A stretch of DNA of 64,000 nt, taken from positions 848,311 through 912,310 of the forward strand of contig CP064994.1 of assembly GCA_016699975.1 (NCBI GenBank). The letters are read 5' to 3'. This document shows, one piece after another, positions 19,300-40,887 of the stretch (the first letter of the stretch is position 1; the number at the start of each line of letters is the position of its first letter). The translations under genes were made by a program, and so were the position numbers. Under the pieces are notes generated by a model, which saw only the letters and a list, made by a program, of their open reading frames with translations, was not told the DNA's origin and did no database searches. Origin of the DNA: Candidatus Moraniibacteriota bacterium. GTDB taxonomy: Bacteria; Patescibacteriota; Minisyncoccia; Moranbacterales; UBA1568.

Positions 19300-19552
19300 A
19301 GCGTTTTTGTTTTAGAGCTGAGGAGCACAAAAAAAGAGACTTTTGGTCTCAGTATACCATACACGCTTTAAAACGAGCGCGCTCTTGTCAAGACTTCCCT
19401 CTCCCGAGCGAGGAGGGTAGAATCGAAATACGGCTCGTCTTTCTCTAAAAAAGAAAAATGTGGCTGAATATGAAGATTCCCATCTCTTTCGAGTTCCGTT
19501 TTTTCGTTTTTGACTCTCTGTAAGACTTCATGCAATTCCGATTGATCCTCCT

Positions 19553-22500
19553 ATGCCCTTCGCTCACCTTCACGTTCACTCGCACTACAGTCTTCTGACC
19601 GCTCCCGCGAAAATTGATGCACTTCTTGATCGCGCGAAGGCACTCGGTATGGAGGCGCTCGCGCTCACAGATTACAGCGCGCTCTATGGTGCGGTCGAGC
19701 TTTCGGTTAAAGCGAAAGAGCGCGGCATGAAAGCAATTATCGGTGCCGAAATATATGTCGCGAAAGACATGAGGAGTCGCACTTCGAACGAAGACCGTCG
19801 GCGCTACAACCTCGTACTCTTGGCCGAAAATGAAGTCGGCTATAAGAATCTCATGAAGATTATTTCCGCCTCGCATCTCGAAGGCTTCTACTACAAACCC
19901 CGCGCCGACAAAGCGCTCTTGCGAACGTATCGCGAAGGACTCATTGCCCTTTCAGGATCCGTAACGGGCGAAGTGCCTTCGCTCATCATTGCAGGAAGTG
20001 ACGAGCGCGCGACGAAAGCGGCCCGGGAATACGAATCAATTTTCGGAGCAGGAAACTTTTTCTTGGAACTTCAGCCGCACCGCGACTACGAAAACCAGCT
20101 CCTCGCGAACGCGGGACTCGTGCGAATATCACAGGAAACCGGCATTCCGCTCGTTGCTGCAAACGATGTCCATTATGTGCACCCTGAAGAAGCCGAGCTT
20201 CAGGATATTCTGCTGTGTATTCAAAACAACTGGAAAGTTTCGGACGAAAATCGTCTCTCCCTTCGGCACCTCGACCTCTCCCTTCGAAGTCCAGAAGAGA
20301 TGCGCGCGTTTTTTGAAGACGTGCCGGACGCGTTCGAGAATGCAGCTCGTATTGCCGATCGCTGCGACGTGCATATCAAACTCGGGGAAACACAACTTCC
20401 CCACTTCGATGTGCCTGAGGGAAAAACCGCAGAAGTATATCTGCGCGAACTCTGTGAACAAGGCCTCGTGAAGCGCTTTGGCGACCGCGCGGGAGAGACG
20501 CACCGAGCGCGCATGGAATACGAATTGGGCGTCATCGAAAAAACTGGTTTCGCTTCGTACTTCTTGATCGTGCAGGACTTCGTAAACTGGGCGAAAAATA
20601 AAGGCATCGTGGTCGGCCCGGGTCGCGGAAGCGCCGCCGGCAGCTTCGTTGCGTACCTCACGGGCATTACGAACATGGATCCAATCGAGTATCGCTTGCT
20701 CTTCGAGCGATTTCTTAATCCGGAACGCATCTCAATGCCCGATGTCGATATGGATTTTTCCGACGACCGTCGCGACGACGTACTCAACTACGTTCGAGAA
20801 AAATACGGTCACGACCATGTCGCCCAAATCATCACTTTCGGAACCATGGCAGCGCGCGCCGCGATTCGCGATGCGGGTCGAGCGCTCGGATTTTCCTATG
20901 GTCTCTGCGACTCGGTCGCGAAACTCATTCCGCAGTTCCACACAATAGAGAAGGCACTCGCCGAAGCGCCGGACTTCAAGGCATTCACCGAGAAAAATCC
21001 CGATGCAAAACGCCTCGTCGATGTCGCCAAAAAGATCGAAGGGCTCGCGCGACACGCATCAATGCATGCCTGCGGCGTCGTTATCACCAAAGATCCCGTC
21101 ACCGAATACACACCCATCCAGAATATTTCTGGTTCCAAAGAAGGTATCGTGACACAGTACTCGTCGTCTACCAAGTCGAGTTACATCGAAAAAATCGGCC
21201 TCCTCAAAATGGATTTTCTCGGACTCAAAAACCTCACGATTATCCAAGACACCATCAAGATTCTCAAAGCGCTCGGAAAATTCGATGAGCTCGGACAGAA
21301 AATCGGACTCGATCCCAATTCTGCAACGACCGCCGAAATTATCGATCACCTCCCCCTCGACGACGCCGATACCTTTGCGCTCCTTCAGAAAGCAAGAACG
21401 ACCGGTGTCTTCCAGCTCGAATCAAACGGCATGAAGCGATACCTCAAACAACTTCGCCCGAGCGCGCTCGAAGATATCATCGCCATGGTCGCCCTCTACC
21501 GACCTGGTCCCATGGAATATATTCCCGACTTCATCGCCGGAAAACACGGTCAAAAAACAGTCGAGTATCTCCACCCGAAACTCGAACCCATTTTGGGAAC
21601 GACCTACGGCGTCGCAATCTACCAAGAACAAGTGATGCAGATCGTTCGCGACCTCGCGGGCTTTACCTTGGGCGAGGCGGATATTCTGCGAAAAGCGGTG
21701 GGAAAGAAAATTTTCGAACTCATTCGGGAGCAAAAAATAAAATTCGTAGAGGGCTGTGAGAAACAAGGCATTTCCAAATCAATCGGTGAAAAAGTATTCG
21801 CGTTCATCGAGCCGTTCGCGGGATACGGATTCAATCGCTCGCACGCCGCCTGCTATGCCCTGATCGGCTATCAAACCGCTTACCTCAAAGCCCACTACCC
21901 TGCCGAATTTATGGCAGCCCTTCTCACGAGTGATCAAAGCAATTCCGATCGTGTCTCGATCGAGGTCGCCGAAGCGCGTGACATCGGCATCGAAGTTTTG
22001 CCACCTTCCGTCAACGAAAGTTTCGAAGCGTTCGCCGTGATTCGCGGAGAAGATGGGATCGAGCGCATTCGCTTCGGTCTCAATGCCGTCAAAAATGTAG
22101 GAACGACCGTCGCCGAAGAAATCGTCCGCGAACGAAAAGCCAACGGTCCATTTCAAAACCTCACCGACTTTATCGAACGCGTTCGCGGAAAAGACCTAAA
22201 CAAAAAATCGATCGAAGCGCTCTCCAAGGTGGGCGCGCTCGACTCGTTCGGCGAACGAAAGAGTCTTCTTTCGAGTATCGATACCATTCTCCTCTACGCC
22301 AAAAACAGCGAAAAGGCCAAATCGACCCATTCCGTCAGTCTTTTTCGAGACATGCCGATCGAAACGAGCGAGATTCGGATTGCTCCGGTCCCGGAAGCTA
22401 CCAAGCGCGAGAAACTTCAGTGGGAAAAGGAATTGCTCGGCCTCTATGTGAGCGATCATCCAGCAAGCGACTATGAAGCATACCTCGCCCACGTGGCACT

Positions 22501-23089
22501 CCCTATTCATGAAGTCGAAAAACACCCCGAAGGCGCCTCGACTCAGGTAGGCGGTGTCATCTCCGCGCTTCGCAAGGCCTACACCAAAGATCAAAAAACG
22601 ATGTACTTTGCTACGATCGAAGACACTACTGGCCGCATCGAAGCGGTCGTCTTTCCGCGCGTCGCCGAACAAACGGAGTCGCTCTGGGTCGAAGAAGCCA
22701 TGGTAATCGCCGGCGGAAAAATTTCCCTGCGCGACGGCTCGCCCAAAATCATGGTGGAGCGCGCCGAACGCCTCTCTCCAGCATCAGTCGAGACCTGGAA
22801 ACGAGTTGCTCTCACCCGAAAAAAACATGAGGGAATTTCCAAAGCAGTACCTCCTCAAACAGAAGACTCGAAACCATCCGCTTCTTCGATTACGGTCAGC
22901 CTTCCCGACACAGCAACCGAAACAGATATCGAAATGCTCGCAACTTTACTTCGTTCGCTCTCTCCGGGAGACACACGCGTTTTCATTGAGCTTCGCAGCC
23001 ACGTCATTCGAACAGCATTCACGATTGCCTCCGATAGAGAAACGCTCGATCGTCTCCGCGCCTCAAGCCCAATGAGAGAAATACGATAA
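19553..23089 (+). CDS. dnaE: DNA polymerase III alpha subunit DnaE
   Basis: 1178 aa with a PHP domain ([11 protein letters not shown]), a polymerase core ([15 protein letters not shown]...), an HhH region and an OB domain. Confidence 0.9.
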
Positions 23090-31118: not shown

Positions 31119-31169
31119 CTTTGTAACCGACCAATGTTGCAGGTAAGCGTGTCGTGCTACCTGCTGTTG

Positions 31170-31360
31170 GCGGTGAGATTTTGCGCTTTGCGCGAACTTT
31201 TTTCGAGCAAAGCACCAAATAAGGAAGCCGTCCCCGCCGTTGCGCTCCGCCCACTGGCGGATCGCTGTATCCAGAGAGAAGTTTCTTTACGATTTCGGAT
31301 TTTGCGCGCGGTTTTTTTCTCTCAAAAATGGAAAAGAAATCTTCTCTCTGGATACTCTGC
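31170..31360. repeat. Inverted repeat IR-A (left copy, ~190 bp). Its inverted partner lies at 38945..39133.
   Basis: The reverse complement of 31170..31360 matches 38945..39133 with only a few indels. The unit contains internal hairpins (GTATCCAGAGAGAAG...CTTCTCTCTGGATAC; CCGCCAGTGGGCGG). Confidence 0.85.
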
Positions 31361-31669: not shown

Positions 31670-33059
31670 CTATACTGAAGCCTTACTATGCTTGCTAATC
31701 TTTATTTGGGGAGTAATACCTAATTCCGAGCATTTTCTTGCCCAGGATTCAATTTTTTGTTTCAAGATTATAGAATTTATTTCAGAGATTTTAGTTGGCA
31801 ATTTTTTGTTTTCTATGCCAATCCAAAGACAGTAAACCCGGAAAGACTGATCCAGCTTTTTAGTATTCGCTTTCTTACTTATAAGTTCAAGTGTATTATT
31901 TGCCTGGTCACAAACATATCCTAGCTTTTGTGCAGTGCCAAATTTTACAGCATACACGGTATCCTCCTTCTTTACATCCCATGCCTCAATAGGCGTGCCC
32001 GATTTAACCTTAATTTTTGAAAAATCTTTATCCGCGATACTGTACCCGTGTTTCTTCAACTCTATATTAAAATCACTTTCTATTCCCATAATTTCAATCA
32101 AATCATCCTCTACTTTCTCTAGTTCTATGGTATCAATATACTCATTGAGTTGATCCAAATAATCTTCGTTAAATCTCATCCATTTACCTTGTGACAAAAT
32201 AACATTTTGACCATCAACGATATAATCAATTGATTCCTTGAGCGTCCGCGAGAACTCATTTGCATCTTCTTTTTTTACTTTAATCTTAATACTAAGTATT
32301 TGATCATCAGGAATCGAATGTTCTGATATAAATCCATTAAGCTGCTCAATCGAAAGCTCATCTAGCTCATTTGAAAAATTTCCTCCCCAATGAAATACAT
32401 ACTTTTCTTGTCCAGAAAATATGAAATCTACACCGACAAGGTCGTGGCTATTTGCGGTAAAGTCTGCACCGTCTTTGATTCCTTTTATTTCTTTGAGAAG
32501 CTTTTCTTCATAAGAAATGACTTCGGGAAGTCCATCTATAATCATCGTTCTGGGGAGCGCGAAAAGTTCTTTTGATTCAGCTAATCTAGTCAATTTATCA
32601 AGAAAATCCTCAAGGTCCTCTTTCTCAATTTCTGGATTAAGATTTACGGATGATCCGAATTTACCAGTTTTGCCGAAGTCAGCTTTTTGCTCTTCCAATA
32701 TAGATGCTTGCAAATAGTCAACGGATTCCCCACTTTCTATATCAAGCTTTGTATGTTTTGTATAGCTTCTTATTTCTTTTTTCTTCTTGCCAGCAAACTT
32801 TTTTGTAGATTTTTGACGAACATCCTGTTTATCAACAGCACGTTTTGCAATTTCTGTTCCAAAATCATGATCGCAGTGTTGCCGAAGATAAAAATGACTC
32901 TTCCCGTAACTAATAACGAAGCAATATTTGTCATTTTCCCAAAGATAAGCTGCAAAATAAATTAAATTCTTTGGCTTATTACCAGAAAAAAATTCCTCAT
33001 ATTCTTCCACCCACGGGATTTGTTTTGAGTTAATATCTTTTGAAAAATAGAAGCTATAT
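31670..33059 (-). CDS. Unknown protein, C-terminal ~462 codons of a ~505-aa gene interrupted by an IS630 element. It is the last gene of the R-M operon.
   Basis: ORF 31670..33073. Its first 5 codons are encoded by the IS terminal inverted repeat. The upstream exon is at 34140..34265. The protein is K/E-rich with no recognised domain. Confidence 0.45.
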
Positions 33060-34138
33060 CCCCCGCAAAACAAAATAGGGGATCTGGTATATTGGATTCA
33101 TGCCCGCAAAAACAAAAACTGAACTCTCCCCCGAAGAGAAAGATTTGCTCAAAGCGTATCTCAAAACATCCCCGCTCATTCTCGTTCGCCTGAAATGCCA
33201 TGCGATTCTTACGAGAGAAAAAGGAATGCCTCTGAAAGACATCGCCGATATTGTTTCGAGACACGAAAATACTATCGGTGTATGGATGAAGAACTGGGAA
33301 AAACAACGCATGGCGAGTATCTTCACCGGACATGAGGGAATCAGAACGCAAGTAAACTCACAGAAGAACAAAAGAAGAAATCAGAGAAGCCCTCGAAAAC
33401 CACCAAGTGAATACACTCTTCCAAAAACCTTTTGGGATGTCCCCGCCCTCAAAACATATGTTCAAGCGATATTTGGAGTCGTATTTGAATCCGTTCGTTC
33501 ATATCACTTCCTCCTTTCTTTTTGCAATCTGAGTTTCAAGTATCCCGATACCTTCGATCTTCACCGGAATGAAACTCATATTGTCGAAAGAATGGTTGAA
33601 ATACAGACAGAAATCAGCCCCTTCTCAAGGATGATTCGTGGGAAGTGTTTGCTTCCGATGAAGTGCGAATGGAATTGGAAGCTCTCACCAGAAAAGCGTG
33701 GCTCAAGAAAGGAGAACGGACGATCGTGCACGTGAATCGAAAGCGAGAAGCGCAAGTTATCTCGATTGCTCAATCAAAAAACTTTCGATGCCATCTTTAT
33801 GAAGTTCCCTGGCAAAACCAAGAAGAAATACTCAAAGCGTTGGAACAATTTCTGAAAGAGTATCCTGATAAAAATCTGTATCGTATGGGACAATGCGCGA
33901 TTTCCAGGGAAGGGGAATACGAAAAGCCCTCCGTAAAGGAGGACTTCTCGAGAGAGTGCATCTCATCAACTTGCCGCCATGCCCCCGATCATAATCCGAT
34001 TGAGCAGTGTGGAATACGGCGAAAGGGATGATGGCAAACACCCAATATGAAAGTTTTGAAAAAATGAAGATGGTGTTTTTCACGTATGTGAATGGACGAG
34101 CGTTTGAGTATCGAATCTAAGATTTTGTTTTGCGGGGG
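33060..34138 (+). mobile_element. IS630/Tc1-mariner family insertion sequence (~1.08 kb) with 17-bp terminal inverted repeats CCCCCGCAAAACAAAAT and TA-type flanks
   Basis: The left TIR is at 33060..33076. Its reverse complement is at 34122..34138. Flanks are ...TATAT| and |ATATAG. Confidence 0.75.
33100..34031 (+). pseudogene. IS630-family transposase (HTH plus DDE domain), frame break near 33650
   Basis: N-terminal HTH (LKCHAILTREKGMPLKDIADIV) and a C-terminal ...APDHNPIEQ motif (the YSPDLNPIE box) occupy two overlapping frames (ORFs 33100..33735 and 33645..34031). Confidence 0.65.
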
Positions 34139-34139
34139 A

Positions 34140-34265
34140 TATAGTTTTCCATTTTCCGTGCACAGAAGAGTGAATAACTTCGAGTCCCACAGACTCAAGC
34201 TTCAATTTCAAATCTAAAACACTGTCTTTTGGAATTTTGAAGATATTCAACTTCATAATGGTCAC
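34140..34265 (-). CDS. 5' exon (42 codons) of the IS630-disrupted unknown gene. Its start overlaps the methyltransferase stop (ATGA).
   Basis: MTIMKLNIFKIPKDSVLDLKLKLESVGLEVIHSSVHGKWKTI, after which the ORF runs into the IS TIR. Confidence 0.4.
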
Positions 34266-35041
34266 TTCATTCTATTTTCTGCAACCTTAAAGTATTTTTT
34301 ATCCTTCTCTATGCCAACCCAAGTTCTGCCAAGTTTTTTTGCAACAAATGTTGTTGTGCCACTCCCGAGAAACGGGTCAAGAACAACGTCGCCTTTATTA
34401 GACGAAGCAAGAATGATTCTTCTCAACATTTCCTCTGGTTTCTGCGTTGGATGAACTGCTCGATTATCCTTTCCGCGTATTCTTTCTTTTCCTTGTACCA
34501 ATGGCAACTGCCAAACATCCCGCATTTGCTTCAAGGAGCCATCTTTTTGTTTTTCAGGATTCAGTTTTTTTAATTCCTCATAGTTGAACACCCATCCCTT
34601 GCCTTTTACCGCCCATACAACAAATTCTGTAGAGTGTGTAAATACGCGCCTCGTCATATTTGGCATCGCATTTGTTTTTTGCCAAGTAATAATATTATTG
34701 ATCTTGAAATCAAGTTGTTTCAAGACAATCATTACCTCTGAAATATTGTGATATGTGCAGGAAATATAGATTGAGCCACCTTCTCTCAAAACACGATACG
34801 CTCCACCAATCCATTTGCGTGTAAACTGCAAGTATTCAGGAGCGGACATCCTGTCCCACTCTTCGTTTACCATGTACCAATCGCCACCTGTTTTATTTCC
34901 CTTCCAATGCAAGCCATTGCCAGAAAGGTTATAGGGAGGATCAGCAAAGATAAGATCAACAGATTCTTTCTCAATCTGCTTAGTCATTATCTCTACACAA
35001 GCTCCTAGGTATAGTTGGTTTTTCTTCATATTTTTATACAA
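34262..35041 (-). CDS. Beta-class DNA methyltransferase (N6-adenine or N4-cytosine; motif IV DPPY before motif I)
   Basis: IFADPPYN near the N-terminus and LDPFLGSGTT near the C-terminus give the permuted beta-class order. The length is 259 aa, typical of the HinfI/RsrI-like group. Confidence 0.8.
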   Translation of the reverse strand: MYKNMKKNQLYLGACVEIMTKQIEKESVDLIFADPPYNLSGNGLHWKGNKTGGDWYMVNEEWDRMSAPEYLQFTRKWIGGAYRVLREGGSIYISCTYHNISEVMIVLKQLDFKINNIITWQKTNAMPNMTRRVFTHSTEFVVWAVKGKGWVFNYEELKKLNPEKQKDGSLKQMRDVWQLPLVQGKERIRGKDNRAVHPTQKPEEMLRRIILASSNKGDVVLDPFLGSGTTTFVAKKLGRTWVGIEKDKKYFKVAENRMK

Positions 35042-36848
35042 GGCTTGCCTGCCATGTTGATATGGCGTTTGGAATATTCTTTAACCACTCTCCCGAGTCC
35101 GTATACGATTTTGATGAACCAATAATTTCTTCGTACAAACGAGAGATTTCATCGTGCTTCAAAAATTTATTCTCAGATTTTATCTTGACGAGAGTTTTCA
35201 AGACTGAAACAAAATCAGTAATTGATAATGGTACTATTTTTTGAGTTTTCCCCTCATATTCATATTTGATAGCTGTCCAAAAAGTATTGACCGTATCACG
35301 ATGAATTTTTGGAGCTATAAAGAGACAATATGTTTTCTTATCAGTGTATTTATTCTCAAAATCCCGCAAATGTCTCATAACTGGCTGCCCCTCATTGTAC
35401 CATTGATCCCTACCTGTAAGCATTGTAACTTCGCAGATAGCATTAAAGTTTCCATAGAAACATTCGATGTCTGGTGTGTTGGCAGGAGCAGTAAAAGTGG
35501 GCTCATTATCGTCTCCGACAGGATAGTTTGGTTGTATTTTGAGTGCGTCATTTAGTGCGTGGAGACCAAGAGAGGACAATTTTTCAAGCAGTATCGGTCG
35601 ATCCTCAAAGTCAAAAATATTTTCGAGGTCTTTGATGTAAGATTCAACTTGTTCTACCGCTTGTGATTTTTTGTGGTTACCCTCTTCTTGTAATGTCCGC
35701 CTCAAAACCCGCAACTCCTCAATGTATGCCTTGAGTTCCGTTTCTTGAAAAGTCTGATAATCCCTTATAGCAATACCTCTCCTCTGTAAGTCACTCTCGT
35801 ATTGCTCAATATCTTGAACGAGGTTTTTGATGATTTCCACATATTTTTCCTTAGTTTCCCAAGGTAGTTGTGGTTGCGAGATATCAGAAATATAGTTTAG
35901 ATACTCATCTTTTGTTGCAAAAACCCTTGATTGCGCATTATCAAAATCAAGCAAAGATTTTATCTCAACTGATCTTCTCGATTCCAAATCAATATAATAA
36001 CCACCACCACGAATAAATATGTAGCGTGTTAGACGAGAATATCGTATTGCATTATCTCCGTAATCGCGTAGATTTTTCAGAAGTCCTGAAACTGCACTTG
36101 TCTTTTTTGTCCCGAGAAATTTACTTACAAATTCTTTTTCATAGGAATCAAAAATTGCTTTCTGTTCATTTCTATTTTTTCCAGAAAGCTTATCGCGCAA
36201 TCCTATGAGGTTTGTCGCATAACCATCAATATCCTTGTAATTTACCAATGTTGGTACGAAAAGCGAAAATTCTTTCTTACTAATTCCTTTCGCCTCTTTG
36301 CCTCGCGCAATTTCTTTTCTGTTTACAGCATCTATCAAGTGAAGCGCACCAATAAATGGTTTAATATCATATCCACTATCCTGCGAATAATCGTCATTAT
36401 CCAAGTTCGGAACTTGCCATTTCAAGAAACTTCTCAAGAAAATTTCTCCAAGATCGAAATTTTCCTTCAAAAACAATCTTCCTAAATCTGTGATAAAAAT
36501 TTTCCCATCTTTAATGGAAACAAATCCGAATTTTTTTAGAGGATTCAATGATTGTCTGCCTCGCATCGAAGGATCCTCATAGTTCTTGGCATTGAAAATT
36601 GCCTCAGCTTCTTTGAAAGAAATTTCTTTTGATTGATCGTCAATCAGGCTTATCTGATCTTCTGAAAGACCATTATAAAACTGGCGGCTTCCATACCCGT
36701 AAACTCTATTTTTAATAAGCAAAATCTGATATTTTTTCTGATTTTCTAAATTCCACTCAAAATTTTCAATCTCCTGCAAAACGACTAGGAAATTTCTTAG
36801 TCTTTCAGGATTACGTAATGTTGTTGTAATTGACCAGGGCTTTTTCAT
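35034..36848 (-). CDS. Type IIS restriction endonuclease or nicking enzyme of the AlwI family (N.BstNBI/PleI/MlyI-like)
   Basis: 604 aa. The C-terminal block ...ICEVTMLTGRDQWYNEGQPVMRHL...YCLFIAPKIHRDT...IVPLSITDF parallels ...LGEVTTSKG...EPVTRH...YCLFIAPEIN...IIPLSLKQF, recalled from N.BstNBI. The N-terminal region is also similar. Confidence 0.7.
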   Translation of the reverse strand: MKKPWSITTTLRNPERLRNFLVVLQEIENFEWNLENQKKYQILLIKNRVYGYGSRQFYNGLSEDQISLIDDQSKEISFKEAEAIFNAKNYEDPSMRGRQSLNPLKKFGFVSIKDGKIFITDLGRLFLKENFDLGEIFLRSFLKWQVPNLDNDDYSQDSGYDIKPFIGALHLIDAVNRKEIARGKEAKGISKKEFSLFVPTLVNYKDIDGYATNLIGLRDKLSGKNRNEQKAIFDSYEKEFVSKFLGTKKTSAVSGLLKNLRDYGDNAIRYSRLTRYIFIRGGGYYIDLESRRSVEIKSLLDFDNAQSRVFATKDEYLNYISDISQPQLPWETKEKYVEIIKNLVQDIEQYESDLQRRGIAIRDYQTFQETELKAYIEELRVLRRTLQEEGNHKKSQAVEQVESYIKDLENIFDFEDRPILLEKLSSLGLHALNDALKIQPNYPVGDDNEPTFTAPANTPDIECFYGNFNAICEVTMLTGRDQWYNEGQPVMRHLRDFENKYTDKKTYCLFIAPKIHRDTVNTFWTAIKYEYEGKTQKIVPLSITDFVSVLKTLVKIKSENKFLKHDEISRLYEEIIGSSKSYTDSGEWLKNIPNAISTWQASLV

Positions 36849-36850
36849 AA

Positions 36851-38659
36851 TTATTTTGTAACTTTACAATAAAAGATTCTCTCGGCATTATCATCGCCAT
36901 TACTTTTTCCAGTTGTAAATGCTTTATACTCTTTTTCGAAAATTTCCACTTCTCCTTTGCTGTTCAAAATTCTCAGTATGTCCTTATCTTTCATTCTCGC
37001 ATTTGATCGCCCATCTTTTGAGTCGCCAGTATTATTATACGAAAGCAAAATATGATTGCATTTTGCATTCATAATCAAGTCTTCAAATGCCTGCGTCGCG
37101 TTCTTTAAACAATAAGAACTTTTAATGTGCGATCGATCCATTTTCTTTCCAATTCCAACGACTGCTGGCTTTTTCCATTCCACCAAGTTTTCTAAAAGAT
37201 GGTATGCGTCAGAATACTGTCTTGAATTGTAAGGGGGATCAATATATAAAACATCACAAGTAATTTTTCGAATAAGAGCGTTTGCATCTTCCCTATAAAC
37301 TTTGTTGTTTTTATTCCGGGAATAATCAAAATCTGGCACTAGCAGCTTCAATGGCTGTACAGTATCTAATTTTTTTCGGAACGCATCATAATGCCCAACG
37401 GTATTAGCAACCTTGTCTACTGCGTAAAGCAATGAACAAATAAGCAGACTTCTTTCGTCTTCATTTTCTGCAATACGGTCAATTTCTTCTCGTATTGCTC
37501 CAATTTTCCTTGCATTTTCTAACGAAAAATATGTTCCTCCAAAATGCTTAGAGAAATAATTATCGTCTTTGCTTTGTAGATTGTTTAAATGGCTTATTTT
37601 ATTTGCTACACTGGCAAGAATATCCTTACTAACACCAAGAAAAGCATTTAAACAAACATAGTTTGCATAAAGAAAATCATTCGAAATGATTTTGACTTCT
37701 GGGGTATTAAACCTTTCACCAACAACGCCCGTTCCAGAAAAAATATCACAAAGAGAATCTATTTTCCCGCATTTCTCAGAAATAATGTCCTCTATAAACC
37801 CGAGAAGTTTATGCTTGTTTCCTAAGTACCTTCTATTTTGCAATTGAAAATACCCGGCTTTTTGTTGTATTGGCTGAAAATAATGTTTCTCGACTTTTCG
37901 AACGCTCATTTCATAAACAGGTCTTTCAATCTCTAATAAGTCAAAAAGTGTCGCCTGTGTTCCATCAGCAACATAATCAAAATCAGTACCAGTCTTTTTT
38001 AACTTTTCACAAAAACTATAATGTTCATTTTCGGAAACAATAATAAAATCAATAACGGGTATCCCCATTATTTCGCCAGCTTGTGCTATTTTCTCAACAA
38101 CTTGAGTATCTTTTTCACTCGGAGTAGTATCTCCTGATGGATGATTATGTACCAATATGACGCTAGCGGCATTTAACTCCGTTGCTGGATGAAAAATTTC
38201 TCGTGGATGTAAGAGTGTTTTATCAAGAAGCCCAACACTCACTACTTCTTTCTTAAGCAAGCCATTCCTTGCATTGAGATATAGGCAGACGAGATGTTCT
38301 TTTTTCTTATCTCGTAGATCATAAATCAAAGACAGTACATCCTGTGAGTTTTTTATGATAAGCTCATTGGATTTTTCTTCTTGATAAAACCTCTTCACGA
38401 GAGAAACAGCAGAAACAACCTGAAGAGCCTTTGCCTGCCCAATTCCTGATATTTTTTGCAAATCATCCACGGATATATCTAAAAATCCTTTTCCAAATTT
38501 TTGGATCACTTGTTGGGATAATTTTTGAACATTTTTCCCTTTGATTCCGCTCCCAAGTAGAATAGCCAAAAGATCACTTTTGGAAAGTGCATCCGGTCCT
38601 TTCTTAAGGAACCTCTCTCTTGGTCTATCCACTTTTGGAATATCTTTTATTTTTGTCAT
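36851..38659 (-). CDS. Fusion protein with an N-terminal RadC-like JAB/MPN domain and a C-terminal Dam-like (D12-class, alpha) N6-adenine DNA methyltransferase
   Basis: Residues 1-225 carry a RadC HhH region (LSKSDLLAILLGSGIKGK...ISGIGQAKALQ) and the JAMM motif HNHPSGDTTPSEKD. Residues ~250-602 carry YLGNKHKLLGFIE...DIFSGTGVVG (D12 motif I) and LYIDPPYN (motif IV). Confidence 0.75.
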   Translation of the reverse strand: MTKIKDIPKVDRPRERFLKKGPDALSKSDLLAILLGSGIKGKNVQKLSQQVIQKFGKGFLDISVDDLQKISGIGQAKALQVVSAVSLVKRFYQEEKSNELIIKNSQDVLSLIYDLRDKKKEHLVCLYLNARNGLLKKEVVSVGLLDKTLLHPREIFHPATELNAASVILVHNHPSGDTTPSEKDTQVVEKIAQAGEIMGIPVIDFIIVSENEHYSFCEKLKKTGTDFDYVADGTQATLFDLLEIERPVYEMSVRKVEKHYFQPIQQKAGYFQLQNRRYLGNKHKLLGFIEDIISEKCGKIDSLCDIFSGTGVVGERFNTPEVKIISNDFLYANYVCLNAFLGVSKDILASVANKISHLNNLQSKDDNYFSKHFGGTYFSLENARKIGAIREEIDRIAENEDERSLLICSLLYAVDKVANTVGHYDAFRKKLDTVQPLKLLVPDFDYSRNKNNKVYREDANALIRKITCDVLYIDPPYNSRQYSDAYHLLENLVEWKKPAVVGIGKKMDRSHIKSSYCLKNATQAFEDLIMNAKCNHILLSYNNTGDSKDGRSNARMKDKDILRILNSKGEVEIFEKEYKAFTTGKSNGDDNAERIFYCKVTK

Positions 38660-38661
38660 AT

Positions 38662-38910
38662 CTATTTCAAAAGCTCATCACTCGCGACATCTAACGCCTG
38701 TGCGATCTTTTCGATTGTTGCAAGGGTGGGGTTTCCTTTCCCTGCTTCAATATTGCTCACTTGAGCACGATCAAAACCGAGCTTACGACAAATGTCGCCT
38801 TGCGACATTTTCTTCTGCTCTCGTATGCGTTTGATGTTTTTCCCAAGCTTGATTGAAGGGGTAGTCATATCTATAGATTTTATTATACCGATTGTTGTGT
38901 TGTATAACAA
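38662..38910 (-). CDS. Controller (C-protein-like) XRE-family HTH regulator at the head of the R-M operon
   Basis: LGKNIKRIREQKKMSQGDICRKLGFDRAQVSNIEAGKGNPTLATIEKIAQAL. The stop is 3 nt before the RadC-methyltransferase start. About 70-80 aa. Confidence 0.6.
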   Translation of the reverse strand: MLYNTTIGIIKSIDMTTPSIKLGKNIKRIREQKKMSQGDICRKLGFDRAQVSNIEAGKGNPTLATIEKIAQALDVASDELLK

Positions 38911-38944: not shown

Positions 38945-39133
38945 GCAGAGTATCCAGAGAGAAGTTTTCTTTTCCATTTTTGAGAAAAAAACCGCGCGCA
39001 AAATCCGAAATCGTAAAGAAACTTCTCTCTGGATACAGCGATCCGCCAGTGGGCGGAGCGCAACGGCGGGGACGGCTTCCTTATTTGGTGCTTTGCTCGA
39101 AAAAAGTTCGCGCAAAGCGCAAAATCTCACCGC
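38945..39133. repeat. Inverted repeat IR-A' (right copy)
   Basis: Reverse complement of 31170..31360. Confidence 0.85.
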
Positions 39134-39255
39134 AAATTGAAACTTCCGAATCCGAAAGGGAAAAGGATCGGTGCGCCGAAGGCGCGGAAGAAGACAGAAG
39201 GTGGCGTCGCTCCGCGACGAATCTGAATGGGGTGGACAGGCTGAAGCGGGCGGAT
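39130..39255. repeat. Inverted repeat IR-B (left copy, ~126 bp). Its partner is at 40678..40805, and it directly abuts IR-A'.
   Basis: The reverse complement of 40678..40805 equals 39130..39255 nearly perfectly. It begins with a near-copy (1 mismatch in 9) of the tRNA-Ser 3' end (CTCACCGC versus CTCTCCGC). Confidence 0.85.
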
Positions 39256-39284
39256 TTGTCCTTGTTTCGTATCCAAAAGCAATT

Positions 39285-40690
39285 ATGATCAAACCAAAAT
39301 ATTTTCTCTACGCGCGCAAGAGTACTGAAGACGATGATCGCCAGGTAATGAGTATTGAGGCGCAGCTTTTTGAATTGCGAGAATATGCGCGTAAAGAAAA
39401 TCTTGAAATCCTGAAGGAATTTCAAGAGTCGAAAAGCGCAAAGACGCCAGGGCGAGAGGTATTCGGAAAGTTGATGGAACGAATTGAAAACGTGATGGAG
39501 TCGGTATTCTCGCGTGGCATCCTGATCGCTTGGCGCGTAATTCGATGGATGGCGGGCGCGTGGTGTACGCCGTCGATCAAAAGAAAATCGTGTCTTTGCG
39601 CTTTCCGACTTTTTGGTTTGAACCGACCCCGCAGGGGCTCTTTATGTTGCAAGTGGCGTTCGGACAATCCAAATACTATTCCGACAACCTCGCCGAGAAT
39701 ATCAAGCGAGGAATCCGCCAAAAATTGCGCCGTGGCGAGTGGCTCAACCTCGCTCCCTTTGGTTATATGAACGATCCTGTGAAGCGAAATATTGCGCCAC
39801 ATCCCACGGAAGCGCGGATTGTGCAGCTCGCGTTTGATGAGTACGCAAAAGGAACGCACACTTTCTTGTCTCTTGGCGCATTTTTGGCGGAACTTGGCGT
39901 GGTCAGTCGGAATGGAACGCCACTTGCCAAAGCTTCCATCAAACGGCTCATCACCAACCGTGCCTATCTCGGTTTTGTGAAGCACGGTAAGGAATGGTTT
40001 GATGGAAACTTTGAGCCCCTGATTTCTCCCGCTTTGTTTGAAGCCGTGCAGAAGATACTTTTGGCGAGAGAGCGACCGCGCAAGCGGAAAATGAAGCATG
40101 ATTTTCCGTTTACTGGACTTTTTCGATGTGGCGAGTGTGGTAGTATGATTTCCGCCCAATGGACGACGAATCGGCATGGCACGAAGTATCGCTACTATCG
40201 GTGCTCGAAAAAGCGCGGTCGCTGTTCGCAGTCGTACATTCAGGAGAAAACCCTCGCCAAACAATTACGAGCACGGCTTCAAACCATTTCGCTGTGTGAT
40301 CACTACACTGACTGGATGTTGGGTAAGGTGAAGGAATGGGAGCATGAAGAAGTATCGGCATCACACAGCGAAATACAAAATCTTTCAGCAACTATCAAAG
40401 CGAGTGAGGCGCGCCTGGAGAAGTTGGTTTCGATGTATTTAGATGGTGATGTTACCAAAGAAATCTACCTTCGCAAAAAAGATGAAAGTATGCGCGCCAC
40501 TCTCGCTTTGCGGGAAAAGCTGAAAGATTTGGAAAGCGGGAGAAATCAGTGGGTCGAACCCCTGCGAGAATGGATTTTGGATACGAAACAAGCCGATTTT
40601 TTGGTCGAGCATGAGGATTTGCACCAAACAAAAAGGCTCGTCCAAAAAATCGGAACGAACCCCATTGTTCGTGACAAATCCGCCCGCTTC
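39285..40690 (+). CDS. Large serine recombinase (resolvase catalytic domain, recombinase domain, zinc ribbon, coiled coil) with one frame break near 39500
   Basis: The N-terminal catalytic region is YARKSTEDDDRQVMSIEAQL... The second frame continues with ...GILAWHPDRLARN... The CGECGSMISAQW...YYRCSKKRGRC zinc ribbon follows. The end coordinate is approximate because the ORF runs into IR-B' and the tRNA. Confidence 0.75.
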
Positions 40691-40805
40691 AGCCTGTCCA
40701 CCCCATTCAGATTCGTCGCGGAGCGACGCCACCTTCTGTCTTCTTCCGCGCCTTCGGCGCACCGATCCTTTTCCCTTTCGGATTCGGAAGTTTCAATTTG
40801 CGGAG
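40678..40805. repeat. Inverted repeat IR-B' (right copy). Its last 5 nt overlap the tRNA-Ser 3' end.
   Basis: See IR-B. Confidence 0.85.
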
Positions 40806-40887
40806 AGGCAGGGATTCGAACCCTGGAAGGGGTTTCCCCCTTAACACATTAGCAGTGTGCTGCTTTCAGCCACTCAGCCACCTCTCC
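40801..40887 (-). tRNA. tRNA-Ser (anticodon GCU), class II with long variable arm. No encoded CCA.
   Basis: The minus-strand sequence folds as acceptor GGAGAGG, D-arm GCT..AGC, anticodon stem GCACA/TGTGT with loop CTGCTAA, a long variable arm, and T-arm CAGGG-TTCGAAT-CCCTG. The sequence is GGAGAGGTGGCTGAGTGGCTGAAAGCAGCACACTGCTAATGTGTTAAGGGGGAAACCCCTTCCAGGGTTCGAATCCCTGCCTCTCCG. Confidence 0.8.

Follow-up and report, generated by a model that had tools for sequence, protein, structure and literature searches.

Why should a RadC protein be built into the modification enzyme of a restriction–modification (R-M) system, and what might it do there? RadC is nearly universal in bacteria and common on mobile elements, and to our knowledge it has lacked a known function ever since its first designation as a "DNA repair" protein was retracted. 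The question is raised by one gene in a 64,000-nucleotide stretch of the genome of a Candidatus Moraniibacteriota bacterium (the whole of which is referred to here as the window), in which an earlier note, made from the sequence alone, had seen RadC joined to an adenine methyltransferase. A strongly selected fusion that physically links RadC to a DNA methyltransferase, within a self-contained four-gene cassette, offers a testable handle on RadC function.

The fusion gene (36851..38659, minus strand) begins with ATG and encodes 602 residues followed by a stop codon, with no internal stops, in agreement with the single continuous reading frame that had been claimed for it. Searched as an exact match, the protein sequence is not among recorded entries. 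The earlier note had considered that a frame break between residues ~225 and 250 might turn one gene into two. Because the 236 full-length fused homologues retrieved here share one common reading frame, no such split exists, and the possibility of an assembly or frameshift artefact is already refuted.

The N-terminal 220 residues reproduce the two-domain architecture of stand-alone RadC/YicR (PF20582 and PF04002; PRK00024/TIGR00608; PDB 2QLC), with all JAMM residues present and the zinc site intact. The HhH-containing UPF0758_N domain (residues 4–78; 38426..38650, minus strand; Pfam 2.9e-23) has a mean column conservation of 0.84 across 122 fused proteins. It is followed by the JAB/MPN domain (residues 102–219; 38003..38356, minus strand; Pfam 2.4e-38), in which the JAMM pattern E...HxH-x7-S-xx-D is found as E154 (in HPRE), H171-x-H173, S181, and D184 in HNHPSGDTTPSEKD. 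A full RadC module was thus correctly recognized from the sequence, and the JAMM residues align with the RadC family positions, a check that had been named beforehand: across 67 aligned fused proteins of 49–95% identity, each is either invariant or no less than 90% conserved. For the JAB domain, pN is 0.08–0.10 and pS ~0.8. The RadC half scores 221 bits against the NCBIfam equivalog PRK00024 (cut-off 180) and matches 2QLC both in sequence (2e-26) and in fold (TM 0.85, 40% identity). In contrast to the fusion, stand-alone RadC has neither the ~50-residue QxxLF linker nor the 330-residue DNA methyltransferase, nor is it part of an R-M operon on a mobile island.

The C-terminal half (residues 271–602 plus the stop codon; 36851..37849, minus strand) is an alpha-class D12 N6-adenine methyltransferase (MethyltransfD12, Pfam 1e-33, residues 278–529). 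Motif I, DIFSGTG at 305–311 beginning with D305, precedes motif IV, DPPY at 474–477 beginning with D474, in the alpha order described previously; a target-recognition region of ~160 residues separates the two, and both are invariant across the aligned fused proteins. Judged by its sequence, the domain has the full motif set of an active m6A DNA methyltransferase. It scores 385 bits against the PADLOC model MTase_II PDLC03373. A sequence search of the PDB returned no match for this half, even at E = 10, and it was a Foldseek comparison that retrieved E. coli Dam and DpnM as fold matches. The label "Dam-like" therefore holds at the level of class (D12, with the Dam/DpnM fold) and fails at the level of subfamily, where the Dam model TIGR00571 gives 16.4 bits against a cut-off of 114.85. 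An AF2 model of the whole fusion contains two confidently folded halves with an overall pTM of 0.55, the geometry between the domains not being confident.

The genes around the fusion place it, with little room for doubt, in an R-M operon, whose order is C protein, RadC–M1, AlwI-family endonuclease, and CcrM-like beta-class methyltransferase. A consensus scan and reading of the sequence point to a candidate operon promoter and C-box region with a sigma-70-like TTGTTA-17-TATAAT element (38882..38910, minus strand), a putative promoter stretch that is AT-rich, partly palindromic, and located just upstream of the C gene. The controller gene itself (38662..38910, minus strand) encodes a Cro/C1-type HTH protein (Pfam HTH_3, 3.7e-16; PADLOC Control_protein, 9.3e-14). 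Its true start is likely the ATG at 38868, which would give a protein of 68 residues; the orthologue in three sister loci (L002–L004) has 69. Its stop codon lies 2 nucleotides ahead of the ATG of the fusion, and the endonuclease gene begins 2 nucleotides past the stop codon of the fusion, as expected from the claim that the gene sits between a C-protein gene and an AlwI-family endonuclease gene.

The endonuclease (604 residues; 35034..36848, minus strand; Pfam RE_AlwI, 9e-84) matches PDLC03393 over its full length with 427 bits, its best PADLOC model, which is derived from REBASE and named "Type II nicking endonuclease." It also aligns with Nt.BspD6I (PDB 2EWF; 109 bits) through the PD...EVT catalytic region, and no BspD6I-like small-subunit partner is encoded in the window. 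The gene that follows (34262..35041, minus strand), which overlaps the endonuclease gene by 8 nucleotides, encodes a second methyltransferase of 259 residues, beta-class and CcrM/HinfI-like (Pfam N6_N4_Mtase, 2.9e-63; 201 bits against CcrM, PDB 6PBD). This gene had been omitted from the earlier note.

Two 181-nucleotide arms of an inverted repeat (31167..31347 and 38956..39136, 93% complementary), the right one directly upstream of the putative promoter, enclose the cassette, along with IS remnants and a DUF6119 gene. The GC fraction is 0.35–0.40 across the interval from 28 to 40 kb, compared to ~0.50 in the flanks. No second radC gene occurs in the window. Based on these sequence features, the fusion gene is very probably the M1 modification gene of a mobile, Type IIS-like R-M cassette of the AlwI family, and the operon type proposed previously is recovered as a conserved cassette with a second methyltransferase gene; we hold the anatomy of the fusion and its membership in an R-M system with equally high confidence.

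AlwI, PleI, MlyI, and N.BstNBI/Nt.BspD6I are members of the same endonuclease family. With Type IIS systems of this family the cassette appears to share, in addition to the endonuclease, the use of two methyltransferases for an asymmetric site: M1 would methylate one strand and the CcrM-like M2 the other. Annotated AlwI-family examples on plasmids (S. aureus SAP055A and one L. lactis plasmid) have the same pairing with the M1 clade. Their M1 genes, of the same clade as the M1 of the fusion and 44–48% identical to it, differ in having no N-terminal RadC, only an HTH domain or a fused second methyltransferase.

As for the recognition site, GATC is unlikely because an orthologous sister cassette, in which a LexA domain takes the place of RadC, adjoins a gene for DpnI, an enzyme that cuts GATC when it is methylated. 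The target is probably related to GANTC, for instance GAGTC, rather than GATC. Within the window, k-mer counts give observed/expected ratios of 1.04 for GAGTC/GACTC and 1.00 for GGATC/GATCC, with or without the island, and thus no avoidance of either.

Is RadC a functional part of this enzyme or a passenger? The most trivial answer would be a neutral accident, in which a housekeeping radC was captured by the adjacent methyltransferase gene, or an artefact, in either case without any contribution of RadC to the R-M system. Reduced genomes often contain gene fusions, and no separate radC gene was seen beside unfused relatives in the loci of the genome scan, so that there is no independent operon linkage. 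Against this stand the number and spread of the 236 fused homologues, which travel with the cassette and come from CPR bacteria, Planctomycetota, Nitrospirota, Proteobacteria, Bacteroidota, and others. Species-level genome matches fall in Gammaproteobacteria, Patescibacteria, Fusobacteriales, Marinimicrobia, Planctomycetia, and Saccharibacteria. One subfamily comprises at least 120 clusters at 74–95% identity and a second at least 120 clusters, and two cassette types are seen, one with RadC–D12, RE_AlwI, and a beta-class methyltransferase, the other with RadC–D12, D12, and RE_AlwI. An AlwI-family endonuclease is present at about 65 of 80 loci of the D12 clade, which is nearly always found beside such an endonuclease and a second methyltransferase.

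Selection on the RadC half argues in the same direction. Purifying selection on it is very strong (pN 0.08–0.14, pS 0.72–0.93) and no weaker than on the methyltransferase; its catalytic residues are invariant, and one and the same RadC–linker unit occurs both on two D12 subfamilies and ahead of C5 methyltransferase starts. A neutral origin is accordingly highly improbable.

The two cassette types also reveal how unevenly the components have changed. Between them the RadC halves are 80–89% identical, the methyltransferase halves 43–44%, and the endonucleases only ~25%. A recent module swap, considered as an explanation for 85% identity in RadC next to 43% in the methyltransferase, was rejected because synonymous sites are saturated in both halves; the gap is due to RadC evolving slowly or to an exchange long ago. 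Fused RadC retains its 80–89% identity across phyla, whereas the stand-alone RadCs compared are ~41–51% identical to one another.

These values bear directly on a further alternative, that RadC is a protease against the cognate endonuclease, a built-in restriction-alleviation or antitoxin-like device that limits self-restriction. The idea has some foundation in that JAB domains are metallopeptidases and that RadC-like genes, in the parts of the literature consulted, adjoin anti-restriction genes on mobile elements. In this case, however, a highly conserved protease would have to face very different targets, and the RadC–linker unit is, moreover, part of a HaeII-family cassette whose endonuclease is unrelated. 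The disparity between RadC halves and endonucleases indicates that the target of RadC is conserved and is not the restriction enzyme. The alternative is therefore very unlikely, and the sequence comparisons disfavour the endonuclease-directed peptidase role that the earlier note had entertained.

A regulatory function deserves closer consideration, because other domains fill the N-terminal slot in sister cassettes. In these, LexA, HTH, or RHH domains replace RadC. Fusions of LexA_DNA_bind and Peptidase_S24 to D12 (P0122; L007–L009, L023, L052) belong to orthologous cassettes, and in P0122 both the Ser/Lys dyad and the Ala-Gly cleavage site are retained; at L022, L078, and L094, a LexA-like gene stands on its own upstream. 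HTH_3 fusions are represented by P0163, P0171, P0151, and L063, plasmid M1 genes have Xis/MerR-like HTH extensions, and C5 methyltransferases have RHH extensions. R-M methyltransferases with N-terminal autoregulatory DNA-binding domains are familiar from M.SsoII-type enzymes. The LexA-, HTH_3-, Xis-, and RHH-fused relatives resemble the fusion in carrying an add-on in the same position, on the same M1 clade, and in orthologous cassettes; RadC differs from their extensions in having a conserved catalytic metal site, in being accompanied by a separate C protein, and in not being known as a sequence-specific binder.

By analogy with these relatives, RadC could be a regulatory module whose HhH region binds near the operon or senses DNA structure and whose JAB domain cleaves the fusion or a partner on a signal such as damage or single-stranded DNA, so as to adjust how active the methyltransferase is or how strongly the operon is expressed. 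The DNA binding of HhH motifs is not sequence-specific, which counts against such a role. The regulator position is, in addition, already filled by the C protein, which exists separately alongside RadC–M1 in the window and in L002–L004 and L049. Neither Gly-Gly nor any other motif of cleavage type is conserved in the linker, QxxLF being the only motif kept, and no ubiquitin-like gene was found in any cassette inspected. Characterized JAB domains are peptidases according to the part of PMC3239186 that concerns them, in favour of cleavage, and Iyer et al., in the RadC passages of PMC5512222, argue that RadC has no ubiquitin-tail groove, which speaks against it. On balance a regulatory module is an unlikely explanation, though one with a real share of the probability. 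Given that the RadC fusion has a C protein beside it as a distinct gene (window, L002, L049), and given the endonuclease comparison above, we infer that RadC is neither the transcription regulator of the operon nor a protease against its endonuclease. As a separate observation, the presence of regulator domains in the same N-terminal slot would just as well point to RadC being regulatory and so weighs against reading it as an accessory.

The segment between the two halves provides a different lead. Residues 220–270 (37850..38002, minus strand) form a disordered interdomain linker of ~50 residues, as judged from AF2 pLDDT and low conservation: pLDDT is about 30–50 for residues 223–262, and the conservation of 0.61 among 122 fused proteins is the lowest in the whole protein. 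Apart from L220 at the JAB boundary, its only invariant columns are Q235, L238, and F239, which belong to Q235-A-T-L238-F239 (37943..37957, minus strand), a consensus match to the QxxLF motif that binds the beta sliding clamp. Qxx[LIM]F was found in 234 of 236 fused proteins. Positions 1, 4, and 5 of the clamp-binding consensus are the critical ones (PMC12309361). Known clamp clients carrying QL[S/D]LF or QxxLF include polymerases, MutS/MutL, Hda, and some transposases, and the fusion would resemble them in presenting Q-x-x-L-F, with positions 1, 4, and 5 invariant, in a segment predicted to be disordered. The linker motif, only five residues long, is tentatively proposed as a candidate clamp-docking peptide.

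The motif is not confined to RadC fusions. It lies at the extreme N-terminus of 7 of 40 unfused relatives, where 0.64 would be expected and none of 5,000 shuffles reached 7; LexA-fused relatives carry it as QLPLF, RHH-C5 methyltransferases as QLSLF, and RadC-C5 fusions as QASLF or QAALF. Among non-RadC loci with N-terminal extensions in the genome scan, 2 of 39 have the motif (P about 0.15), which is no significant enrichment. That QxxLF is a feature of methyltransferase N-termini alone was considered and rejected, since RadC-C5 fusions and a stand-alone RadC (P0392) carry it as well; it travels with RadC as well as with methyltransferase N-termini. The closest unfused relatives, P0123, P0125, and P0127, sit on contigs that are too short or too poorly annotated to show their gene neighbourhoods.

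The overall explanation that we consider best, at a little under an even chance, is that the fusion is the M1 of a mobile cassette, tethered to the clamp, with RadC as a DNA-directed accessory. The beta sliding clamp that stays behind on freshly replicated DNA would be the docking site of the QxxLF linker, and docking would let modification keep up with DNA synthesis. RadC would be an enzymatic accessory of the modification enzyme, its HhH domain binding DNA and its JAMM site acting on something conserved, which could be DNA or a DNA-bound factor of universal occurrence. Of these components, clamp tethering, suggested by the invariant linker residues, is a possibility that we regard as serious but somewhat short of probable, and much the same tentative standing is given to an enzymatic action of RadC on DNA or a DNA-bound target. 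The RadC passages of PMC3239186 and PMC5512222 offer predictions only, with no established biochemical activity. No report of an R-M methyltransferase as a clamp client was found in the literature. If the linker does bind the clamp, this would provide first evidence of the replication machinery delivering R-M methyltransferases to nascent DNA, and it would give a new view of the timing problem that self-protection meets after replication.

A role on incoming DNA can be set against this explanation. Instead of docking on replication clamps, the methyltransferase would then be brought by RadC to DNA that is single-stranded or entering the cell, such as the intermediates of natural transformation or recombination, in the manner of DpnA, the competence-induced single-stranded DNA methylase that protects transforming DNA. 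That radC belongs to the competence regulons of several bacteria counts in favour, and the fusion occurs chiefly among uncultured groundwater lineages, CPR included. The work of Attaiech in 2008, however, reportedly contains no transformation defect for RadC mutants, and the QxxLF motif would be left unexplained. On elements entering cells as single-stranded DNA, RadC-like genes are found with anti-restriction genes, according to the relevant parts of PMC5512222 and PMC12458937. Recruitment of this kind has, in our estimation, a slim chance of being correct.

Fusions of RadC to other proteins have been described, namely the RadC-containing polyvalent proteins that conjugative elements encode and fusions with ArdC, DnaG primase, and DinG helicase as partners (Iyer et al. 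2011, 2017; PMC3239186, PMC5512222). As far as the RadC passages of these two papers extend, they mention no R-M cassette in which RadC is partnered with a D12 or C5 methyltransferase. Like the fusion, the polyvalent proteins, as portrayed there, combine RadC with DNA-acting domains on mobile DNA, which supports a nucleic-acid-related role. They differ in being large multi-domain plasmid or ICE effectors that are delivered to recipients, whereas the fusion consists of two modules in a chromosomal R-M operon. Many-domain effectors of plasmids, ICEs, and phages typically contain ArdC-N or a processing peptidase; the fusion has two modules only and no full-length match in 72,556 plasmids and 50,697 phages.

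RadC is also found beyond the D12 methyltransferases. In 13 protein clusters, RadC and the same linker stand ahead of the start of a C5 cytosine methyltransferase, which, together with the HaeII-family cassette, suggests that RadC and its linker are a portable unit attached to different R-M methyltransferases. The single RadC-C5 fusion read at the DNA level has a methyltransferase truncated after motif VI; it is therefore not established that RadC attaches in general to functional methyltransferases outside the D12 clade. A 249-residue gene that follows this fusion was examined as the C-terminal half of a split C5 methyltransferase and rejected, as it encodes a NOV_C/PD-(D/E)xK-like protein.

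A broader and rather speculative proposal, which we consider unlikely, is that RadC and the QxxLF linker constitute a clamp-tethered DNA-processing unit recruited by several kinds of R-M system (AlwI/D12 and HaeII/C5), coupling self-protection to replication, repair, or DNA entry. RadC would then be a clamp- or fork-associated enzyme, the cassette would become the first genetically tractable assay of RadC activity, and the arrangement would be the first bacterial parallel to the PCNA-tethered maintenance methylation by eukaryotic DNMT1.

The earlier impression that the fusion is uncharacterized agrees with the literature, in which no publication describing a RadC–methyltransferase fusion was found, yet the fusion is not rare: it is present hundreds of times in public databases, auto-annotated as "RadC" or "adenine methyltransferase." For annotation this means that hundreds of entries named only "DNA repair protein RadC" are R-M modification subunits.

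The fusion gene (window 36851–38659, minus strand) is a single uninterrupted reading frame of 602 codons with an ATG start. Pfam models place a UPF0758_N domain at residues 4–78 (2.9e-23), a RadC JAB domain at residues 102–219 (2.4e-38), and a MethyltransfD12 domain at residues 278–529 (1e-33). The NCBIfam RadC equivalog model scores 221 bits (cut-off 180), and the Dam subfamily model only 16 bits. The JAMM metal-site residues of the JAB domain are E154, H171, H173, S181, and D184. In the methyltransferase half, motif I (DIFSGTG, 305–311) lies approximately 160 residues ahead of motif IV (DPPY, 474–477), which establishes alpha-class order. Reading frame, Pfam matches, and motif positions thus bear out the earlier note, which had described a continuous frame joining a RadC module with its JAMM site to a D12 methyltransferase in alpha order. 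A sequence search of the PDB returned RadC 2QLC (2e-26) as the sole solved structure, with zero matches to the methyltransferase half. In an AlphaFold2 model built from the family alignment, both halves are well folded, the RadC half superimposing on 2QLC at a TM of 0.85 and the C-terminal half resembling E. coli Dam and DpnM. The linker between them (residues 223–262) has a pLDDT of approximately 30–50 and the whole model a pTM of 0.55, which indicates that there is no fixed packing between the two halves.

The fusion is the second of four closely packed minus-strand genes. The first encodes an HTH_3 controller protein (38662–38910; probable start at the ATG at 38868) and is preceded by a promoter-like site, TTGTTA-17-TATAAT; the others encode a 604-residue AlwI-family endonuclease (35034–36848; 9e-84) and a 259-residue beta-class methyltransferase (34262–35041; 201 bits to CcrM), the junctions in order being two gaps of 2 nt each and then an overlap of 8 nt. 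The best PADLOC model for the endonuclease is a REBASE-derived “Type II nicking endonuclease” cluster (427 bits, full length), whereas ordinary restriction endonuclease clusters give just ~106 bits; Nt.BspD6I is distant kin (109 bits), with an alignable catalytic region. It is firmly supported that the fusion protein is a restriction–modification (R-M) subunit for modification (M1) with an intact RadC attached. M1 and the second methyltransferase, M2, would each modify one strand.

The cassette resides on a genomic island, as indicated by its low GC content (0.35–0.40 versus ~0.50), flanking inverted repeats, and its neighbors, a seemingly frameshifted large serine recombinase gene and tRNA-Ser. 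The repeats (181 nt, 93%; 31167–31347 and 38956–39136) enclose the R-M cassette, a DUF6119 gene, and IS remnants. The DUF6119 protein of this segment (31670–33073, minus strand, 467 residues; Pfam 1e-23) matched none of the PADLOC models. Between its gene and the cassette, overlapping frames of 211 and 128 residues (33100–34031, plus strand) look, from a reading of the sequence alone, like a frameshifted IS-type transposase. A second inverted-repeat pair (39126–39260 and 40673–40807; 135 nt, 99%) touches the 3′ end of tRNA-Ser(gct) (40800–40887) and encloses the recombinase gene (39171–40852, plus strand), which appears split by a frameshift into a frame with a resolvase N-terminal motif (39171–39770) and one with Recombinase and Zn_ribbon_recom domains (39530–40852). 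The two repeat pairs could mark an invertible or composite island.

A homology search recovered at least 120 clusters (90% identity) of proteins of 600–617 residues, 74–95% identical to the window fusion and all carrying the same three Pfam domains; their source names are “DNA repair protein RadC” or “adenine-specific DNA-methyltransferase.” The same AlwI-family endonuclease and beta-methyltransferase follow the fusion in a 4.9-Mb Planctomycetota-like contig and in a Candidatus Yonathbacteria genome. A second subfamily, also of at least 120 clusters, spans many CPR lineages, Nitrospirota, Deltaproteobacteria, Saprospiraceae, and one Nanoarchaeota bin, and its cassette combines the RadC–D12 fusion with a 301-residue second D12 methyltransferase and a 505-residue AlwI-family endonuclease. 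In a genome scan with an alignment of the methyltransferase half as query and one genome per species, 354 relatives were confirmed and the best 80 annotated. Because an AlwI-family endonuclease adjoins the methyltransferase in approximately 65 of these 80 loci, this D12 clade supplies the M1 enzyme in systems of the AlwI type. Six of the best 80 carry the RadC fusion (Ca. Thiodubiliella, Patescibacteria UBA1400, Fusobacteriales, Neomarinimicrobiota, Planctomycetia, and Saccharibacteria), and none has a separate radC beside an unfused M1. No RadC fusion was found in 72,556 plasmids or 50,697 phage records; the plasmid relatives are unfused M1 genes (with M2) whose annotated neighbor is an “AlwI family type II restriction endonuclease.” Overall, this gene fusion is genuine, common, and mobile.

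Directly 3′ of RadC-type cassettes in two unrelated hosts are genes for large AAA-type ATPases (AAA_13, 733 residues, locus L002 12416–14617; SMC_N/AAA_15/AAA_21, 488 residues, L015 11229–12695), which may constitute an extra defence module. Several RadC–D12 genes diverge or end straight after motif I, or are split by frameshifts (proteins P0396, P0402, P0413, and P0421, the last standing for 20 member sequences; L024 6326–8139), which suggests that the methyltransferase half decays often.

Across 122 aligned fused proteins, mean column conservation reaches 0.84 in the RadC N-domain, 0.83 in the JAB domain, and 0.79 in the methyltransferase, and falls to 0.61 in the linker. A 67-sequence alignment (49–95% identity) shows little or no variation at the JAMM residues or in either methyltransferase motif. 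When the window gene is compared codon by codon with five relatives, the RadC half has a pN of 0.08–0.14, with pS saturated at 0.72–0.93, and the methyltransferase half a pN of 0.12–0.13 within the subfamily; hence purifying selection on RadC is at least equal to that on its partner. There is firm support both for selection on the fusion and for the importance of the RadC catalytic site. Between the two cassette types, RadC halves are 80–89% identical, methyltransferase halves 43–44%, and endonucleases 25–26%. The disparity between RadC and endonuclease firmly supports a RadC target that is conserved from cassette to cassette, which in turn speaks against RadC acting on the cognate endonuclease.

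Other domains occupy the same N-terminal slot. Among the 150 best cluster representatives retrieved with the methyltransferase half from a 1.84-billion-protein library, the partners are RadC, LexA_DNA_bind plus Peptidase_S24 (P0122), Peptidase_S24 (P0166), and HTH_3 (P0163, P0171, and P0151). P0122 shares 59% identity with the methyltransferase half of the window fusion and retains the Ala-Gly site and the Ser/Lys dyad. Three independent contigs and the complete WWE3 RAAC2 genome carry this LexA variant within an orthologous cassette. The LexA–M1 loci (L007 3121–8282, L008, L009, L023, and L052, the last being CP006914.1 of WWE3 RAAC2) encode a full LexA (DNA-binding domain and S24 peptidase, with Ala-Gly site and Ser/Lys dyad), a QLPLF linker, and M1 in an AlwI-endonuclease/beta-methyltransferase cassette that lacks a controller gene, and may be SOS-responsive R-M systems. 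In L007, a DpnI gene lies 3′ of the cassette; this neighbor and the CcrM-like M2 suggest that the recognition site is probably GANTC-like, not GATC. Unfused LexA-like genes also occur directly upstream of M1, and plasmid M1 genes carry Xis/MerR-like HTH extensions. Since the slot is usually regulatory in these relatives, RadC may itself be a regulatory module of the cassette, although a separate controller protein accompanies RadC in the window and in L002–L004 and L049.

Four alignment columns within residues 220–270 never vary: L220, which marks the JAB boundary, plus Q235, L238, and F239. Qxx[LIM]F is present in 234 of 236 full-length fused proteins (QGTLF in 171, QATLF in 21, QRTLF in 11), with positions 2 and 3 varying freely. 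The pattern fits the bacterial beta-clamp-binding consensus, “QL[S/D]LF or more generally QxxLF,” whose critical positions are 1, 4, and 5 (PMC12309361). Several unfused M1 relatives have the motif at N-terminal residues 4–9 (e.g., MSAAQLALF, MSYQLEIF, and MELTQPYLF), and it occurs in 7 of 40 short N-terminal extensions versus 0.64 expected, a count reached by none of 5000 shuffles. In control loci from the genome scan, with homologous RadC linkers removed, 2 of 39 had the motif (P ~0.15, not significant), and many M1 proteins have no N-terminal extension whatever; QxxLF is therefore a trait of an M1 subset. The host DnaE (Pol III alpha; 19514–23086, plus strand) lacks Qxx[LMI]F, so that the host clamp may accept degenerate motifs; the lone LF-type candidate in its residues 881–1000 is ...HSVSLF.... 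From the motif, disorder, and conservation, we infer that the linker would tether the fusion to the sliding clamp, where RadC would act on DNA or a DNA-bound factor. Literature searches yielded no account of RadC–methyltransferase fusions or of clamp-binding R-M methyltransferases. The architecture is genuine, conserved, and uncharacterised, within a Type IIS R-M system rather than a new category; its value lies in opening the RadC question to experiment and in the clamp-tethering hypothesis.

A search that took as query the RadC portion of P0124, a divergent fusion (47–49% identical to the window's RadC), returned stand-alone RadCs as 87 of 116 hits. It also yielded 13 clusters in which RadC is joined by this same kind of linker, (D/E)Y(V/I)A(D/E)G-Q-x-x-L-F-D-L-L, with QASLF or QAALF as the motif, to the beginning of a C-5 cytosine methyltransferase; at least three sequence types of the latter are represented. 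The P0422 cassette, in four contigs, comprises RadC–C5, a NOV_C-like protein, a HaeII-family endonuclease, and Vsr; there, a real stop codon terminates the C5 domain after motif VI. All remaining RadC–C5 examples are at most 379 residues long, cut short by contig ends or frameshifts, and in ordinary HaeII cassettes the methyltransferases are unfused (336–339 residues). At the level of sequence, a second methyltransferase family, unrelated to the first and belonging to another R-M type, has thus also acquired the RadC–linker unit. At L101 99–3467 (also L100 and L102–L104), RadC, a QASLF linker, and the truncated C5 precede a NOV_C/PD-(D/E)xK-like gene, the HaeII-family endonuclease, and Vsr; L100 and L103 have the endonuclease shortened to 85 residues, and at L119 this truncated C5 gene recurs with NOV_C but lacks RadC.

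Two C5 methyltransferases with an RHH-like N-domain (MAKQIHIKLPDEVH...; L125 4905–6110 and L126 1646–2809) carry QLTLY or QLSLF directly ahead of the catalytic core, just before motif I. The stand-alone RadC P0392 (264 residues) has QKSLF in its C-terminal tail, a hint that the motif may be a feature of RadC proper. Its close relatives P0391 and P0393 (250 residues; the latter annotated Sulfurimonas) lack exactly this segment, apparently through deletion between two DFY repeats.
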